From assembly GCF_003334765.1 (NCBI RefSeq), contig NZ_QOWT01000066.1: a stretch of DNA of 5,353 nucleotides. The stretch is one strand, 5' to 3'. The translations under genes and the position numbers were made by a program. This DNA comes from Escherichia coli. GTDB lineage: Bacteria > Pseudomonadota > Gammaproteobacteria > Enterobacterales > Enterobacteriaceae. The notes below the pieces were generated by a model that was not told the DNA's origin, searched no databases, and worked only from the letters and a program-made list of their open reading frames with translations. This document shows positions 104 through 5,018 of the stretch, piece after piece. The stretch's first letter is position 1. Each line of letters starts with the position of its first letter.

Positions 104-2293
104 TTAATCAGCTAATGGCTGCGGGCGACCAATCAAATACCCTTGCAGATATTGCACCCCGAGCTTATGCAATAGCGCCTGCTGCTGTTGCGTCTCGACA
201 AACTCCGCGACCACACTCAATGACTTCGCTTTCGCCAGATCGGTAATTGATCTCACAATCATCGCATCCAGCGTGTTCGTGACAATATCTTTCACAAAGA
301 CGCCATCAATTTTGATGATATCAGCCTGCAAACGCTTTAACCGTTCGTAGTTGGCATATCCGGTGCCAAAGTCATCAATCGCAATCCGGAAACCAAACTT
401 ATGCAGCTGCTCGATGTTGTACATGCTGCTTTCTGCGTTAGAAAACGCCTGCTCCTCGGTGATCTCAAGAATGACCGCCTGCGGGGAGATGTGATAACGC
501 TTAAACAGACGAATAATCCGCCCGGCAATATTCTTTTGCAGCAGCGTGAGCGGCATTAAATTGACTGAAAAGCGCGGTCCTTTTTTGTCGCAAGGGTGTG
601 TTGCCAGCCACTTCAACAAGGATTCCAGCACTTGCAAATCAAAACGCGCGCTAAGGTTAAACTGAGCAATAAGGGGCAGAAACTTATCCGGGGTCATAAT
701 GCCGCCGTCATATTTCAGTCGCGCGAGGATCTCATCATAACCTTCACCCTCTTTGTTGCGAATTGGCTGGGCGTAGAGCAGCAAATCACCCTGATCTAAC
801 GCCGTGCGAATGGTATTCAGCAATAGCACCTGTTTAGTGGTCTGCCCGGAAACCATCTCCTCTCTGCTATCCAGCGCCAGCACATGATGATGTGCGCAGG
901 ATTGCTCCGCCAGCCAGCTTAACTGCCCCAACAAGGGTTGCAGGGTTTCCTGATTTCCATCAAAACGCCCCCAGGCAGCACCATAGCCCATATCCAGCCC
1001 GGTATTGTTCCAGTGAATTTGCCGACTATTCAGGATGTTAACCATATGCTGGAGTCGCCCTTCCGTTTCCGGCCCGCTCAGCACTAACAGCAGTTCACTA
1101 CCCGGCAATTGATACAACTTTTCGTTTTCCTGCATCAACGGCAGCAGCGTACGGCAAATTGAGCGGATACAGTGAACGCGCATCATTAAGCCGTAATGAC
1201 GACTCATAAACTCAAGATTATCAATGCGCAGGCAGCAAAAACTCTTGCCCGCCTCTTGCTCCGGCGCTTGTTCCAACGCACGAAAGTTGGGTAGGAGCGT
1301 TAACGGATCTGTCAGCGCCTGCAAATGCCAGCGGCGATTAAGCCATTCACTGCGATGATAAATGCGCACCATATAGAGCAGGCAAACGCTAAAGGAAATC
1401 AGCACCGCAAGAATAAATGCCAGCGAATATTCGGTTTCCACCCCTTGCAAAAAGTTCTGGTTGTAATTCAGAAGGCAAAGCGTTGAAACAGCCCAGGTGA
1501 GATTTAAAAACGGATAGCGAAGCTTACCGACCCCGAGGGTAAAGATGATGAAGAAAACGGGTACCAGGTAACCGGCAATAAAGTCGTTTTCATAAGGTGT
1601 GCACAACAGAAGTAGCAGCACGCTTAACGCTGCCAGCCAGCTTAAGGTAAATGCGCGTTTCTCTTTGCCCAACGACGGAGCGATATCCCTGCGCCACAAT
1701 ATCTGCGCAAAGTGGGGACTTACAATCATGCGAGTGAGATAGTAGAAAAGCATGTTGTAAATCAGCACAGCGGTGAAAAGGCTTAGCAAATCAACGACCG
1801 TGAAAATGGCATCCGCATCGCCGAAAAAGGTGGATATCTTTAGCGGGAAATCAAAGAAGCTCCCCACAAGATACATGCTGCATTTGATGCCGATCGGCGT
1901 CACCAAACCAAGCCAGAACAGACGTTGCCAGACATATCGGCTGGTCAATCCATAACGCCAACGCGTCCCCAGCTGCCAGCGTAATATTGCGCAGGCACAC
2001 AACACGACAAACGTCTGGCTACCGAGCATGACCGCAGTCTGTAAAAAAGAGAGATGAAAGTTCCACAGATTGGTGCAAAACATCCCGCATAAAACGGGAA
2101 CGACACCGCGCCAGCCAAAGATAAACAAGATTGACTGCATTACGCACAGTGGCATCCACGCCAGAAAGATATAACTGGAATGGATAATGGCAAGTGGCGA
2201 AATAAAACGGGATAGCTGAATAAGTACCACGGTGAGCGTAAACGCTAGTGTGAATATCTTGATATTTTTTATCAGGTTATGCTCCACAAACAT
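104..2293 (-). CDS. pdeA: Cyclic-di-GMP phosphodiesterase, 729 aa: N-terminal polytopic membrane domain (MASE1-like), degenerate GGDEF domain, C-terminal EAL domain
   Basis: Long minus-strand ORF ending at TAA (rc of 104-106). The ORF track extends it to a GTG at 2408-2410 (768 aa), but the first in-frame ATG (rc of 2291-2293) gives 729 aa, the length I recall for E. coli YfeA/PdeA. The N-terminal ~300 aa are hydrophobic. The GGDEF position reads PGSEL (nt 1091-1105). EAL motifs are intact: EIL-A-R (nt 725-733), DDFGTG (nt 359-376), EFVET (nt 191-205). Confidence 0.88.
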   Translation of the reverse strand: MFVEHNLIKNIKIFTLAFTLTVVLIQLSRFISPLAIIHSSYIFLAWMPLCVMQSILFIFGWRGVVPVLCGMFCTNLWNFHLSFLQTAVMLGSQTFVVLCACAILRWQLGTRWRYGLTSRYVWQRLFWLGLVTPIGIKCSMYLVGSFFDFPLKISTFFGDADAIFTVVDLLSLFTAVLIYNMLFYYLTRMIVSPHFAQILWRRDIAPSLGKEKRAFTLSWLAALSVLLLLLCTPYENDFIAGYLVPVFFIIFTLGVGKLRYPFLNLTWAVSTLCLLNYNQNFLQGVETEYSLAFILAVLISFSVCLLYMVRIYHRSEWLNRRWHLQALTDPLTLLPNFRALEQAPEQEAGKSFCCLRIDNLEFMSRHYGLMMRVHCIRSICRTLLPLMQENEKLYQLPGSELLLVLSGPETEGRLQHMVNILNSRQIHWNNTGLDMGYGAAWGRFDGNQETLQPLLGQLSWLAEQSCAHHHVLALDSREEMVSGQTTKQVLLLNTIRTALDQGDLLLYAQPIRNKEGEGYDEILARLKYDGGIMTPDKFLPLIAQFNLSARFDLQVLESLLKWLATHPCDKKGPRFSVNLMPLTLLQKNIAGRIIRLFKRYHISPQAVILEITEEQAFSNAESSMYNIEQLHKFGFRIAIDDFGTGYANYERLKRLQADIIKIDGVFVKDIVTNTLDAMIVRSITDLAKAKSLSVVAEFVETQQQQALLHKLGVQYLQGYLIGRPQPLAD

Positions 2294-2464
2294 GAGTACA
2301 CTACTCTCACTGATCGGGGTTTTCAGGCACACAAATAATAAGTTTATTCGCATCGCGAAGCAAACAGGGGGCCAGCCTGTTGCCGATTTTTCATCCAATG
2401 ATGCTTTCACCAGGCGGCACTAACCCGGACGTAGACTGTATTACAAAAGCGGCAAAAAGCAGAG

Positions 2465-2492
2465 ACAAAAAACCCCCGCTTTGCAGCGAGGG
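2465..2492 (-). terminator. Rho-independent terminator immediately 3' of tRNA-Ala
   Basis: On the minus-strand RNA: an 8-bp GC-rich stem with one G·U pair (plus 2473-2480 pairs with 2485-2492), a GCAA (GNRA) tetraloop, then six U (plus-strand A-run 2467-2472). Confidence 0.7.
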
Positions 2493-2501
2493 TTGGAAAT
2501 T

Positions 2502-2577
<76 letters not shown>

Positions 2578-2609
2578 GTCACGTAAAGCTTGTCGAGTTG
2601 ACGGGCGGC

Positions 2610-2638
2610 ATCATATGAATTCCGCCCGAATGTGTCAA
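2610..2638 (-). promoter_or_regulatory. Sigma70 promoter for tRNA-Ala: TTGACA, 17-bp spacer, TATGAT, GC-rich discriminator
   Basis: On the minus strand, -35 TTGACA is rc of 2633-2638 and -10 TATGAT is rc of 2610-2615, with a 17-nt spacer. The discriminator GCCGCCCG follows, typical of stringently controlled stable-RNA promoters. The predicted start lies about 25 nt upstream of the mature tRNA 5' end at 2577. Confidence 0.6.
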
Positions 2639-2721
2639 CGGCAAATTGCAACGTGTAGTTTCAATCGCTGAAAAATCAGGCAAATGAACAATTTTGGAAA
2701 ACCGCTCGCATTCAGTAGTTA

Positions 2722-2757
2722 TTCATGTCACGGTTTCCTGTAAAGTGGTGTTATAAA
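2722..2757 (+). promoter_or_regulatory. Candidate yfeC-yfeD promoter with extended -10 (TGtTATAAA)
   Basis: TG at 2749-2750 followed by TATAAA at 2752-2757 in an AT-rich intergenic region. The -35 is weak (TTCATG/TGTCAC around 2722-2732). Position suits a 5' UTR of about 50 nt. Motif only. Confidence 0.3.
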
Positions 2758-2812
2758 ATGAACTACTAATAGACCCACATACATTCAGGGAATTGTTATG
2801 TTCAAGGAGAGG

Positions 2813-3157
2813 ATGACACCAGATGAACTTGCCAGACTGACCGGCTATAGCCGCCAGACCATTAATAAATGGGTACGCAAGGAAGGCTGGACAACGTCAC
2901 CAAAACCTGGCGTCCAGGGTGGCAAAGCCCGACTGGTTCACGTCAATGAACAGGTTCGTGAATATATTCGCAATGCTGAACGTCCAGAAGGTCAGGGAGA
3001 AGCGCCTGCCCTTTCTGGTGATGCGCCGCTTGAAGTATTGCTGGTGACACTGGCGAAAGAGATGACGCCAGTTGAACAAAAACAGTTTACATCCTTGCTT
3101 CTGCGGGAAGGGATTATCGGATTGTTACAACGCTTAGGGATTCGCGATAGCAAATAA
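2813..3157 (+). CDS. yfeC: Small putative DNA-binding protein of unknown function (YfeC family, DUF1323-like), 114 aa
   Basis: ORF ends at TAA 3155-3157. I chose the ATG at 2813 because it is preceded by AAGGAG (2804-2809) and gives 114 aa, the length I recall for E. coli YfeC. An in-frame upstream ATG at 2798 would give 119 aa. The N-terminal helix-turn-helix-like segment is TPDELARLTGYSRQTINKWVRKEGW. Confidence 0.8.
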   Translation: MTPDELARLTGYSRQTINKWVRKEGWTTSPKPGVQGGKARLVHVNEQVREYIRNAERPEGQGEAPALSGDAPLEVLLVTLAKEMTPVEQKQFTSLLLREGIIGLLQRLGIRDSK

Positions 3158-3158
3158 T

Positions 3159-3551
3159 ATGAAAAGATTACGCAATAAAATGACCACCGAAGAACTGGCT
3201 GAATGCCTCGGTGTGGCTAAACAAACTGTTAACCGTTGGATCAGAGAAAAAGGCTGGAAAACGGAAAAATTTCCCGGCGTGAAAGGCGGTCGTGCCAGAC
3301 TTATTCTGGTCGATACGCAAGTTTGCGAGTTTATTCAGAACACGCCAGCCTTCCATAACACACCAATGTTGATGGAAGCTGAAGAGAGAATTGCTGAATA
3401 CGCTCCTGGAGCACGCGCCCCGGCGTATCGACAAATCATCAACGCGATAGATAATATGACAGACATTGAGCAGGAAAAAGTCGCGCAATTTTTGTCACGT
3501 GAAGGAATTCGCAATTTCCTCGCCCGTCTCGATATTGACGAATCAGCATAA
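3159..3551 (+). CDS. yfeD: Small putative DNA-binding protein of unknown function, paralog of YfeC, 130 aa
   Basis: ATG at 3159 lies 1 nt after the yfeC stop (TAAtATG); the ORF ends at TAA 3549-3551. The N-terminal segment TTEELAECLGVAKQTVNRWIREKGW...PGVKGGRARL parallels YfeC, and the C-terminal segment MTDIEQEKVAQFLSREGIRNFLARL parallels YfeC MTPVEQKQFTSLLLREGIIGLLQRL. Confidence 0.85.
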   Translation: MKRLRNKMTTEELAECLGVAKQTVNRWIREKGWKTEKFPGVKGGRARLILVDTQVCEFIQNTPAFHNTPMLMEAEERIAEYAPGARAPAYRQIINAIDNMTDIEQEKVAQFLSREGIRNFLARLDIDESA

Positions 3552-3557
3552 ATAAAA

Positions 3558-3593
3558 AACGGCAGGATATTATCTCCTGCCGTTTATCTTTTT
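3558..3593. terminator. Bidirectional rho-independent terminator between convergent yfeD and gltX
   Basis: Inverted repeat AACGGCAGGA (3558-3567) and TCCTGCCGTT (3575-3584) around a 7-nt loop. It is flanked by an A-run (3554-3559) on one side and TTTATCTTTTT (3584-3593) on the other, so it gives a hairpin plus U-tract in either direction. Confidence 0.7.
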
Positions 3594-3602
3594 ACACGCT
3601 AA

Positions 3603-5018
3603 TTACTGCTGATTTTCGCGTTCAGCAATAAAATCCAGCGCTTTGTTGATACGCTCGATACTGCGGGTCTTACCAATTGCGTGAACGGTAACATCCAGTG
3701 CTGGAGACTGCCCCGCACCGGTTACGGCGACACGCAGCGGCATACCAACTTTACCCATACCCACTTCCAGCTCATCCGCCGTCGCCTGAATAGCGTGATG
3801 AACGTTTTCAGCGGTCCAGTCAGTAATCGCGGCCAGTTTGTCACGAACCACTTCCAGCGGCTGACGCGCTACCGGACGCAGATGTTTTTTCGCGGCGTCG
3901 GCATCGAACTCAGCAAAATCTTCGTAGAAATAACGGCAGCTCTGTGCCATCTCTTTCAGCGTCTTGCAGCGTTCGCCCAGCAGTTTCACCAGATCAGCCA
4001 GCTGCGGGCCGTTACGGGTATCGATATTTTCCTGCTCAATGTGCCACTGTAAGTGAGTAGCAACATACTCCGGCGGCAGCGCGTTAATGTAGTGATGGTT
4101 CAGCCACAGCAGCTTGTCGGTGTTGAACGCACTGGCAGATTTGCTGACGGCATTCAAAGTGAAGTATTTGATCATCTCTTCACGAGTGAAGATTTCCTGA
4201 TCGCCGTGGGACCAGCCCAGACGCACCAGATAGTTCAGCAGTGCTTCTGGCAAATAACCGTCATCACGATACTGCATTACGCTGACTGCCCCGTGACGTT
4301 TGGACAGTTTTTTACCGTCATCGCCATTGATCATAGAAACGTGCGCGTAAACCGGCACCGGCGCTTTCAGGGCCTTAAGAATGTTGATCTGGCGTGGCGT
4401 GTTGTTGATATGGTCTTCGCCACGGATAACGTGGGTGATTTCCATATCCCAGTCATCGACAACCACACAGAAGTTATAGGTTGGGGAACCATCGGTACGG
4501 CGGATAATAAGATCGTCCAGTTCCTGGTTGCTGAACTCGATCGGACCACGGATCTGATCGTCAAAAACAACAGAACCTTCCTGCGGGTTAGCAAAACGTA
4601 CAACACACGGTTCATCATCAGCATGATGCTCATGGCTGTGGCGGCAGCGACCGTCATAACGCGGCTTCTCACCTTTCGCCATTTGCTCTTCGCGCAGCGC
4701 TTCCAGGCGCTCTTTAGAGCAATAGCATTTATAAGCAGTGCCCTCTTCCAGCATCTGATCGATCACCGCGTTGTAGCGATCAAAACGTTTGGTCTGGTAG
4801 TACGGACCTTCATCCCACTCCAGGCTCAGCCAGTTCATGCCATCCATAATGGCTTCGATAGCTTCCGGCGTGGAACGCTCAAGATCGGTGTCTTCAATAC
4901 GCAGCACGAACTCACCGCCGTGGTTACGTGCAAAAAGCCAGGAGTAAAGAGCAGTACGCGCGCCGCCAACGTGCAGATAGCCTGTTGGGCTTGGCGCGAA
5001 GCGAGTTTTGATTTTCAT
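3603..5018 (-). CDS. gltX: Glutamyl-tRNA synthetase (class I aminoacyl-tRNA synthetase), 471 aa
   Basis: Minus-strand ORF from ATG (rc of 5016-5018) to TAA (rc of 3603-3605). Class I signature HVGG (HIGH variant) at nt 4962-4973 and KLSKR (KMSKS variant) at nt 4296-4310. Cys98, Cys100, Cys125 and His127 are present, matching the Zn ligands recalled for E. coli GluRS. The SD-like TAAGG lies 7 nt upstream of the ATG. Confidence 0.97.

Follow-up and report, generated by a model that had tools for sequence, protein, structure and literature searches.

The yfeC-yfeD gene pair of Escherichia coli probably encodes small transcription regulators related to the repressor c of phage Mu

The yfeC-yfeD locus

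The window analysed here is a 5,353-nt stretch of the Escherichia coli genome (RefSeq assembly GCF_003334765.1, contig NZ_QOWT01000066.1). It contains two small, adjacent plus-strand genes that matched annotated E. coli yfeC and yfeD (Table 1). They are preceded by pdeA (yfeA) and tRNA-Ala, both on the minus strand, and followed by the convergent gltX and, beyond it, tRNA-Val. A 1,021-base query covering the pair and its flanks (positions 2600-3620) was matched in all 5,426 complete E. coli genomes, in many of them with 100% identity, and the matched regions were annotated yfeC, yfeD and gltX; the median copy number was one per complete genome (n = 5,426). The genes are the same as those encoding YfeC (b2398) and YfeD (b2399) of E. 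coli K-12, and the matching E. coli records are 100% identical across positions 2600-3620. One tRNA-Ala gene lies upstream in the window strain, whereas K-12 has two (alaX and alaW). An Rfam search of positions 2300-3700 with gathering thresholds returned tRNA as the sole RNA element.

The YfeC and YfeD proteins of Yersinia, which belong to the yfeABCD iron/manganese ABC transporter, are unrelated membrane permeases that have the gene names alone in common with the E. coli proteins. Many literature matches for 'yfeC' and 'yfeD' concern the Yersinia transporter, which makes these names a trap for text mining.

We scanned 100,044 species, each represented by one genome, and identified 107 loci that encode a relative; the best 80 of the 107 were analysed. 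The gene-neighbourhood survey that had been proposed as a check showed that the tandem yfeC-yfeD pair is conserved, being found in 79 of 80 species-level genomes (best 80 of 107 loci), of which the named ones all belonged to the Enterobacteriaceae. In this same set (best 80 of 107 loci), the convergent gltX was located downstream in 70 of 80 and pdeA upstream in 62 of 80.

Table 1. Positions of genes, protein modules and putative expression signals of the yfeC-yfeD locus in the window
Feature	Position	Strand	Details
Putative yfeC-yfeD promoter, extended -10 TGtTATAAA	2749-2757	+	Read from the sequence; no good -35
yfeC coding sequence	2798-3157	+	119 aa; open reading frame; Pfam PF07037, E 4.5e-51 (residues 6-118 on model positions 1-122); annotated yfeC
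YfeC N-terminal winged helix-turn-helix	2813-2977	+	Residues ~6-60; wing 33-48 bears PGVQGGKAR
YfeC C-terminal helical hairpin	3023-3136	+	Residues ~76-113 (LEVLLVTLAKEMTPVEQKQFTSLLLREGIIGLLQRLGI); proposed oligomerisation module
TAAtATG stop/start junction	3155-3161	+	Probable translational coupling site; sequence, conserved gap
yfeD coding sequence	3159-3551	+	130 aa; open reading frame; Pfam PF07037, E 1.1e-63 (residues 8-129 on model positions 1-122)
YfeD N-terminal winged helix-turn-helix	3180-3344	+	Residues ~8-62; fused-chain model, pLDDT ~80-85
YfeD C-terminal helical hairpin	3420-3527	+	Residues ~88-123 (..YRQIINAIDNMTDIEQEKVAQFLSREGIRNFLARL); fused-chain model, conserved motif
Bidirectional intrinsic terminator	3557-3585	Both	11-bp stem, T runs on either side; terminator scan

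Paralogy, start codon and junction

A preliminary description of the window, made by reading the letters and the open reading frames, had called the two genes clear paralogues. The two reading frames are present where it had placed them, and BLASTP aligned their products with 48 of 127 residues identical (38%, E 3e-27). Our recount agreed with its figure of 28 identities within the first 54 residues, counted from MTPDEL and MTTEEL, and the motifs Q-T-[IV]-N-[KR]-W-[VI]-R, PGV-x-GG-[KR]-ARL and MT-x-x-EQ ... REGI ... RL were all found in both proteins.

The reported one-nucleotide junction is also present: the stop codon of yfeC (TAA, 3155-3157) is separated by a single T from the ATG of yfeD (3159). 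The gap between the two genes was 1 nt at 49 of 80 loci and ranged from -20 to +9 at the others (best 80 of 107 loci). As had been noted, yfeD has no strong Shine-Dalgarno sequence, and no purine run of this kind occurs in the 15 nt 5' of its ATG. Since yfeD lacks a ribosome-binding site of its own, it would probably be translated by ribosomes that finish yfeC and reinitiate at its ATG.

Two start codons have been annotated for yfeC. The K-12 RefSeq start corresponds to an internal ATG at position 2813, giving 114 aa, whereas the PGAP start at 2798 gives 119 aa. The upstream ATG was kept in 80 of 80 loci (best 80 of 107) as M-[FIL]-K-E-[R/M]-M, and the Arg codon of this extension varied synonymously (AGG, CGG, CGA and CGT). 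The internal Met was absent from the most distant family members (MKNEWVTPEEL, MMNDEWITPKEL), which have W-V or W-I in its place. A short basic N-terminal extension, MK.L..KM, was likewise conserved among YfeD orthologues. The 119-aa form of YfeC thus appears to have the better supported start, given the upstream ATG at every locus analysed and the distant members that lack the internal Met.

Transcription signals

The region upstream of yfeC was highly conserved across 21 genera, and a TGnTATAA(A/C) block was conserved in their alignment. Transcription of the pair would probably originate from the extended -10 element listed in Table 1, with a predicted start site near position 2764, and would face away from the tRNA-Ala promoter. 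A consensus promoter scan that required a -35 match did not report this element. The tRNA-Ala promoter, on the minus strand, consists of TTGACA (2638-2633), a 17-nt spacer and TATGAT (2615-2610), with a GC-rich discriminator after it. Apart from the tRNA promoter region, positions 2578-2830 contained no noteworthy inverted repeat. At the other end of the pair, transcription would stop at the bidirectional terminator, which is common to yfeD and the convergent gltX.

Protein family and predicted fold

A search for DUF1323 had been suggested as a check on the two proteins. Both matched that family, now named 'Transcription regulator YfeC-like' (PF07037), over their full length (Table 1), and the same family was matched by 90 of 90 aligned relatives. 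Weaker Pfam matches were to generic helix-turn-helix models, such as that of YfeD to HTH_17 (E 4.9e-7). The MerR_1 model gave E values of 0.24-0.32 for the two proteins, which does not place them in the MerR family, and TIGR01764 (NCBIfam 'excise') gave 18.7 bits for YfeC and 27.7 bits for YfeD, below its cutoff of 28.8. A published SUPERFAMILY assignment describes both proteins as 'Putative DNA-binding domain / Excisionase-like', and the RefSeq name of YfeC in K-12 is 'DNA-binding transcriptional dual regulator'. The family has very few members: among 1.84 billion representative proteins searched with a profile, 240 reached E ≤ 0.001 and 17 reached E ≤ 1e-30, many of them fragments. Its distant named members were from Cedecea, Cronobacter, Franconibacter, Scandinavium, Entomohabitans and Chimaeribacter (Yersiniaceae).

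An AlphaFold model of the YfeC monomer was built from 90 family sequences (mean pLDDT 79, pTM 0.43). It contained helices at residues 8-15 and 19-29, wing strands at 33-35 and 45-48 and a further helix at 51-60, and therefore showed the helix-turn-helix, two-stranded wing and third helix of the Mu-type fold. The following linker (residues 61-77) was disordered in the model, with pLDDT <50 at 64-71, and led to a C-terminal hairpin of helices 78-87 and 91-112 with pLDDT 87-91. In a fused-chain model of both proteins (see below), helices 232-242 and 246-267 corresponded to residues 88-98 and 102-123 of YfeD, and the C-terminal hairpin motif was conserved in both paralogues. The DNA-binding fold that had been surmised from the sequence was confirmed by the family models and AlphaFold as a winged helix-turn-helix of the MerR/Xis class.

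PGAP names YfeD as a MerR-family regulator. Together with the small MerR-like DNA binders BldC and RacA, the MerR family is one of the closest known systems, and the two proteins share only the general fold class with it. Canonical MerR proteins have a long antiparallel coiled-coil helix after the wing and an effector pocket. In YfeC and YfeD, the place of the coiled coil is instead predicted to be taken by a disordered linker followed by a short helical hairpin.

Relation to the phage Mu proteins

Single-sequence searches of the PDB found no relative, and the family profile alone reached the Mu domains. Against 177,635 PDB sequences, the 90-sequence profile placed domain I-alpha of the MuA transposase (1TNS) first (E 6.5e-5) and the DNA-binding domain of the Mu repressor c (1G4D) second (E 0.019). 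The signature W-x-[ST]-P-x-E-L-A ... G-W-x-x-x-x-x-x-G-V-K-G-G-[KR]-A is common to the family and the Mu domains. MuA domain I-alpha (1TNS/1TNT), an enhancer- and operator-binding domain, was the best sequence match among solved structures; residues 1-100 of MuA matched the profile with an hhalign E value of 8.1e-8, the Foldseek probability for domain I-alpha was 0.99, and MuA aligned to the family consensus as W-V-S-P-K-E-L-A ... G-W-Q-N-R-T-R-A-G-V-K-G-G-K-A. In MuA, however, this domain is one module of a 663-aa transposase, whereas YfeC and YfeD contain no catalytic or other transposase domains.

When the profile was aligned with full-length Mu c (hhalign), residues 5-110 of YfeC matched residues 16-133 of Mu c with a probability of 94.5% and an E value of 7.6e-8. 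The alignment thus extended past the DNA-binding domain, up to residue 133, and paired E-L-E-P-D-E-A-R-K-A-L-K-L-L-S-K-G-G-L-L-A-L-M of Mu c with K-E-M-T-P-V-E-Q-K-Q-F-T-S-L-L-L-R-E-G-I-I-G-L-L of the hairpin. We then compared the C-terminal parts alone, using YfeC-family columns 70-119 and residues 85-196 of Mu c, the latter represented by an alignment of 12 Mu c family sequences. This comparison scored 28.9 (P 1.6e-5, 36 columns), with Mu c aligned at ~98-133; 200 column shuffles gave a mean of 9.8 (sd 2.0, maximum 16.6), and the reversed profile scored 10.3. The C-terminal-only match, above all 200 shuffles, and the full-length profile match together argue that the DNA-binding domain and the hairpin are both homologous to Mu c.

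In Mu c, oligomerisation is mediated by the central leucine-rich part and completed by the last ~60 residues, which also carry a ClpXP-sensitive regulatory tail. Mu c (Rep, 196 aa; DNA-binding domain structures 1QPM and 1G4D) is ~60-63 residues longer at the C-terminus (~134-196) than the E. coli proteins; after the aligned hairpin, 9 residues are left in YfeC and 7-8 in YfeD, compared with ~63 in Mu c. With both modules homologous to Mu c, YfeC and YfeD can be described as apparent Mu-c-like repressors without Mu c residues ~134-196. They also differ from Mu c in that their genes belong to the core chromosome, are duplicated and have no Mu-like genes in the neighbourhood.

The Pfam family of the Mu domains, PF02316 (HTH_Tnp_Mu_1), gave E 0.048 for YfeC, short of membership, and was not listed for YfeD; among the 90 relatives, 5 matched it at E ≤ 0.001 and 49 at E ≤ 0.1. 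On these profile scores, YfeC and YfeD are distant relatives of PF02316 and not members by the Pfam threshold. The Mu link of the DNA-binding domain is already in databases, the UniRef name of the Chimaeribacter members being 'HTH Mu-type domain-containing protein'. Our literature search found no paper naming yfeC together with the Mu repressor. What is new here is modest, namely the sequence-based proposal that the whole YfeC or YfeD protein, and not just its helix-turn-helix, is a shortened relative of the Mu c type.

Selection and history of the pair

The dN/dS values were 0.06-0.19 for yfeC and 0.07-0.23 for yfeD, with 0.06-0.14 for either gene when compared with close relatives, and both genes are under purifying selection. 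Their rates differed: mean identity to the E. coli protein was 75.6% for YfeC vs 58.1% for YfeD (best 80 of 107 loci), and dN for yfeD was about twofold that of yfeC. In one Escherichia lineage, an in-frame deletion has removed the DNA-binding domain of YfeC and yfeD is intact. Chimaeribacter has a single-copy gene, convergent with gltX; because this single copy already stands beside gltX, the linkage to gltX is older than the yfeC/yfeD duplication.

Published functional data

The preliminary description knew of no characterised function for either protein. This statement is out of date, as ChIP-exo, knockout RNA-seq and mutant and overexpression phenotypes are in print. ChIP-exo analysis yielded 50 YfeC sites and 43 YfeD site rows (Gao et al. 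2021, PMC8464067). Among the YfeC sites, those at chaB-chaC, mukF, abgR and dtpB were the strongest. RNA-seq of a yfeC knockout in the same study showed changed expression of 20 bound genes, 16 of which were called repressed (PMC8464067), and this indicates that the role of YfeC is mostly repressive. The same report ties YfeC to an earlier finding that a yfeC mutant releases more extracellular DNA (PMC8464067). The level of yfeD RNA rose ~20-fold (log2 4.3) in the yfeC knockout, which could reflect derepression or equally a polar effect of the deletion, the construct design not being given (PMC8464067). A delta-yfeC::kan mutant of E. coli K1 colonised the neonatal rat small intestine poorly and was less lethal (PMC5847654), and overexpression of yfeD caused a glycogen-excess phenotype (PMC2853380). 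Our search found no EMSA, footprint or solved structure for YfeC or YfeD.

Several features of the ChIP-exo data call for caution. The YfeC and YfeD lists (50 and 43 rows) overlapped in a single identical entry, which falls at the 5' end of sfsB, and a YciT site lies ~40-70 bp away from it. At mdtL, the coordinates given for YfeC coincide with those of a site of YdhB, an unrelated LysR-type regulator, and within this dataset several positions turn up for many different regulators. Given these three observations, some of the peaks may be generic hot spots. The C-terminal 8-myc tag on YfeC, located at the yfeC-yfeD junction, may have disturbed yfeD expression. As a separate observation, the recognition helix and wing of the two paralogues are near-identical, which would predict a similar half-site preference and fits poorly with two site lists that barely overlap.

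The published 'yfeC' site (2516052-2516085 in NC_000913.2) converted to positions 2489-2522 of the window. This places it ~280 bp upstream of yfeC, where the tRNA-Ala gene has its 3' end and terminator, and not on the yfeC promoter. For this conversion we used an approximate offset of +1976, based in part on differences between the two sequence versions, and checked it against the chaB/ychN, sfsB and adrA sites. Among 11 extracted site sequences, we saw no common operator motif; one clean palindrome, TTTCCG-N6-CGGAAA, was found, at araJ. A scan of the window for this palindrome gave 3 matches, each with 3 mismatches, vs 2.7 expected, and none was near the promoter.

Homo- or hetero-oligomers

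The preliminary description had raised the idea of a YfeC:YfeD heterodimer. In this reading, the two proteins form an obligate heterodimer or hetero-oligomer: coupled translation would supply matched subunits, which would pair through their C-terminal hairpins and bind DNA jointly. Such an arrangement would fit the tightly conserved junction, the retention of the tandem pair in 79 of 80 species (best 80 of 107 loci) and the C-terminal motif common to both paralogues. We modelled the two proteins with AlphaFold2 as a fused chain (YfeC-G30-YfeD), the one two-protein arrangement modelled, from a 36-row species-paired alignment. Both winged-helix domains were confident singly (pLDDT 80-88), but their relative placement was undefined (pTM 0.32), and this single run gave the heterodimer no support. 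Foldseek with the fused model returned generic MarR-type matches only.

The remaining evidence is divided. The rate asymmetry between the genes would suit a pair in which one partner is becoming a modulator, and the rise in yfeD RNA in the yfeC knockout would suit joint regulation. On the other hand, the two site lists have a single identical site, with the reservation that tagged YfeC may have disturbed YfeD; the Escherichia lineage without the YfeC DNA-binding domain has kept yfeD intact; and a single copy suffices in Chimaeribacter. We therefore consider an obligate heterodimer unlikely. YfeC and YfeD would rather act as separate homo-oligomers, and mixed oligomers are plausible, since the hairpin motif is common to both proteins.

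Other origins and identities

The relation to Mu c may also be read as descent. YfeC and YfeD would then derive from the repressor of a Mu-like phage, captured next to gltX before the Enterobacteriaceae diversified, with the regulatory C-terminal tail lost and the gene duplicated later. The early date would follow from the single copy at the same place in Chimaeribacter, a member of the Yersiniaceae. The fast-evolving YfeD would modulate the slow-evolving YfeC by mixed oligomers through the common hairpin, and the proteins may still recognise operators of Mu-like phages. We regard this whole scenario as very unlikely. In a tblastn search of 50,697 phage records, YfeC had no match. The same search of plasmids gave 13 records, mostly megabase-sized or short fragments, and the megabase-sized 'plasmid' records are taken to be mislabelled chromosomes.

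Another reading takes the genes as excisionase (recombination directionality factor) relics of an element integrated beside the tRNA genes. This identity is highly improbable, given that the annotation of K-12-type strains shows no integrase in the 4 kb to either side, that both proteins have an extra conserved C-terminal module absent from Xis, that the sequences nearest to theirs are domains of the Mu repressor and transposase and not Xis, and that in-vivo binding is scattered over the chromosome.

A type II toxin-antitoxin module, which RASTA-Bacteria predicted and a Tn-seq paper restated, is scarcely credible for two full-length PF07037 products of the same helix-turn-helix family with no toxin fold, encoded at a locus found in all 5,426 complete E. 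coli genomes (median one copy) and syntenic across the Enterobacteriaceae, with no phage and only doubtful plasmid matches in tblastn, where the yfeC knockout was viable enough for RNA-seq and delta-yfeC::kan grew at the wild-type rate (PMC5847654).

A role as a defence system was also considered and rejected: PADLOC gave weak matches to the MADS Mad1 helix-turn-helix protein (E about 1e-5), without partner genes.

Discussion

The family, DNA-binding nature and first regulon data of YfeC and YfeD are public, and the two proteins are already catalogued and partly studied. Our results make it probable that yfeC-yfeD is a two-gene core operon of the Enterobacteriaceae that encodes paralogous small Mu-c-like transcription regulators without the C-terminal half of Mu c.

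Each protein would consist of three parts. The first is the N-terminal Mu-type (MerR/Xis-class) winged helix-turn-helix, with the putative recognition helix RQT[IV]N[KR]W[VI]R and a near-invariant GV-x-GG-x-AR wing loop. In the NMR complex of the Mu repressor DNA-binding domain, the wing sits in the minor groove. By analogy with this repressor-DNA complex, the helix of YfeC and YfeD would read the major groove and the wing would contact the adjacent minor groove. The second part is a variable, probably disordered linker of 17-30 residues. The third is the very hydrophobic C-terminal helical hairpin (M-T-x-x-E-Q ... L-L-x-R-E-G-I-x-G-[LF]-L-x-R-L-G-I), which most likely pairs two or more chains and would thereby allow binding to inverted repeats; its hydrophobicity and its alignment with Mu c both point to such a role in oligomerisation.

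The physiological role of the two proteins is still vague, the phenotypes in print being extracellular DNA release, gut colonisation and glycogen excess. The published ChIP-exo assignments have weaknesses, for example the 'yfeC' site that falls on the 3' end of tRNA-Ala when its coordinates are converted with our approximate offset. If the very unlikely descent from a phage repressor were true, one or both proteins might affect lysogeny or superinfection of Mu-like phages. The view of YfeC and YfeD as shortened Mu-c-type proteins does not make them a new kind of system; it offers a concrete structure from which to design mutations in the wing loop, the recognition helix and the hairpin, and the homology to Mu c suggests a testable link between this enterobacterial regulator pair and transposable phages.

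Intergenic region between tRNA-Ala and yfeC

A perfect palindrome, TTGCGAG-N4-CTCGCA, was found between the divergent promoters of tRNA-Ala and yfeC. Among the best 80 of the 107 loci from our one-genome-per-species scan, it was exact in 27, including loci of Enterobacter, Leclercia, Lelliottia and Yokenella, and near-perfect in approximately 14 others; the arms were conserved and the spacer was variable. Only the right arm is left in Escherichia, Salmonella and Citrobacter. The palindrome is a candidate operator for some dimeric factor.

The window strain carries one tRNA-Ala(GGC) gene between pdeA and yfeC; in K-12 MG1655 this gene is present as a tandem pair, alaX and alaW, and the sequence is 115 bp longer. 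The difference looks like the collapse or expansion of a tandem tRNA repeat. On the other side of the tRNA gene, the pdeA frame continues upstream from its annotated start (M40) for 39 more open codons, as far as a GTG codon; this extension probably amounts to no more than intergenic sequence that happens to lack stop codons.

One published YfeC ChIP-exo site has been assigned to yfeC itself, and its position in the window depends on a partly assumed coordinate offset. Mapped with this offset, the site covers the 3' end of the tRNA-Ala gene and its terminator hairpin, and is located approximately 280 bp upstream of yfeC in the window (400 bp in K-12), with pdeA being nearer. It may be an artifact of a highly transcribed tRNA gene and not an autoregulatory operator.

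Coordinates of the features discussed (L-numbers, loci used for comparison; K-12, NC_000913.3 for the 'yfeC' and sfsB sites, as listed in Dataset S4 of PMC8464067 for the others)
Feature	Window (strand)	K-12	Other locus or remark
pdeA frame	104-2410 (-)		annotated start at 2293; GTG at 2410
ChIP-exo site 'yfeC' (YfeC)	2489-2522, presumed	2518028-2518061, presumed	
tRNA-Ala(GGC)	2502-2577 (-)		
Palindrome	2695-2711 (corresponding)		in L024-L077, about -118 relative to the internal ATG of yfeC
Right arm, CTCGCA	2705-2710		
sfsB site (YfeC and YfeD)		~3334930-3334959	L088:3431-3460
mdtL site		3889534-3889558	
uxaB site		~1608737	
uxaC site		~3242823	
yffQ site		2561401	
MOD1-EC7003 yfeC/yfeD			L005:5560-6045

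Published binding sites of YfeC and YfeD

The published ChIP-exo lists give identical coordinates for YfeC and YfeD at one site only (PMC8464067), which falls within the first codons of sfsB (nlp). Since a YciT site has been reported approximately 40-70 bp away (PMC8464067), this common site may simply be a hot spot. Curiously, phage Mu Ner has its host homologue in sfsB, and the Mu-c-like YfeC and YfeD have been reported on this Ner-like gene. Several coordinates reappear among unrelated regulators: the mdtL site is listed for both YfeC and YdhB, and the uxaB, uxaC and yffQ sites are each listed for many regulators (PMC8464067, Dataset S4). In the same dataset, 7 of the 50 YfeC sites are grouped inside 40 kb (402-441 kb). 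The published regulons may be partly non-specific.

In Yersinia, Photorhabdus and others, the names 'yfeC' and 'yfeD' belong to genes that encode permeases of the yfeABCD metal transporter and are unrelated to the E. coli regulators; many text matches in our literature search concerned those genes.

Relatives and natural variants

The YfeC-family profile search also matched long proteins of 400-1300 aa (P0172, P0174, P0183 and similar matches) composed of 5-14 tandem HTH repeats with the unit PW.DEE.L..LY..E.LS..EIA..L.CS..T...WL, at least one of which appears to end in an HNH-type nuclease motif. The match was confined to the HTH part, and these proteins have no bearing on the yfeC-yfeD pair.

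Chimaeribacter (Yersiniaceae; L091/L092) has a single YfeC-like gene of 125 aa that is convergent with gltX, with different upstream neighbours. Cedecea neteri (L093/L094) has two copies of 118 aa each, 47 nt apart; because the second resembles YfeC (MFKEKM...) rather than YfeD, its sequence hints at independent duplication or gene conversion.

In Escherichia sp. MOD1-EC7003, yfeC contains a 249-bp in-frame deletion bounded by two GA(G/T)GATGAC(A/G)CCAG microhomologies, the codons of ..ERMTPDE.. and ..KEMTPVE.., and yfeD is intact. The 36-aa product consists of the C-terminal hairpin only, and this gene represents a natural variant of yfeC with the proposed oligomerisation module alone.
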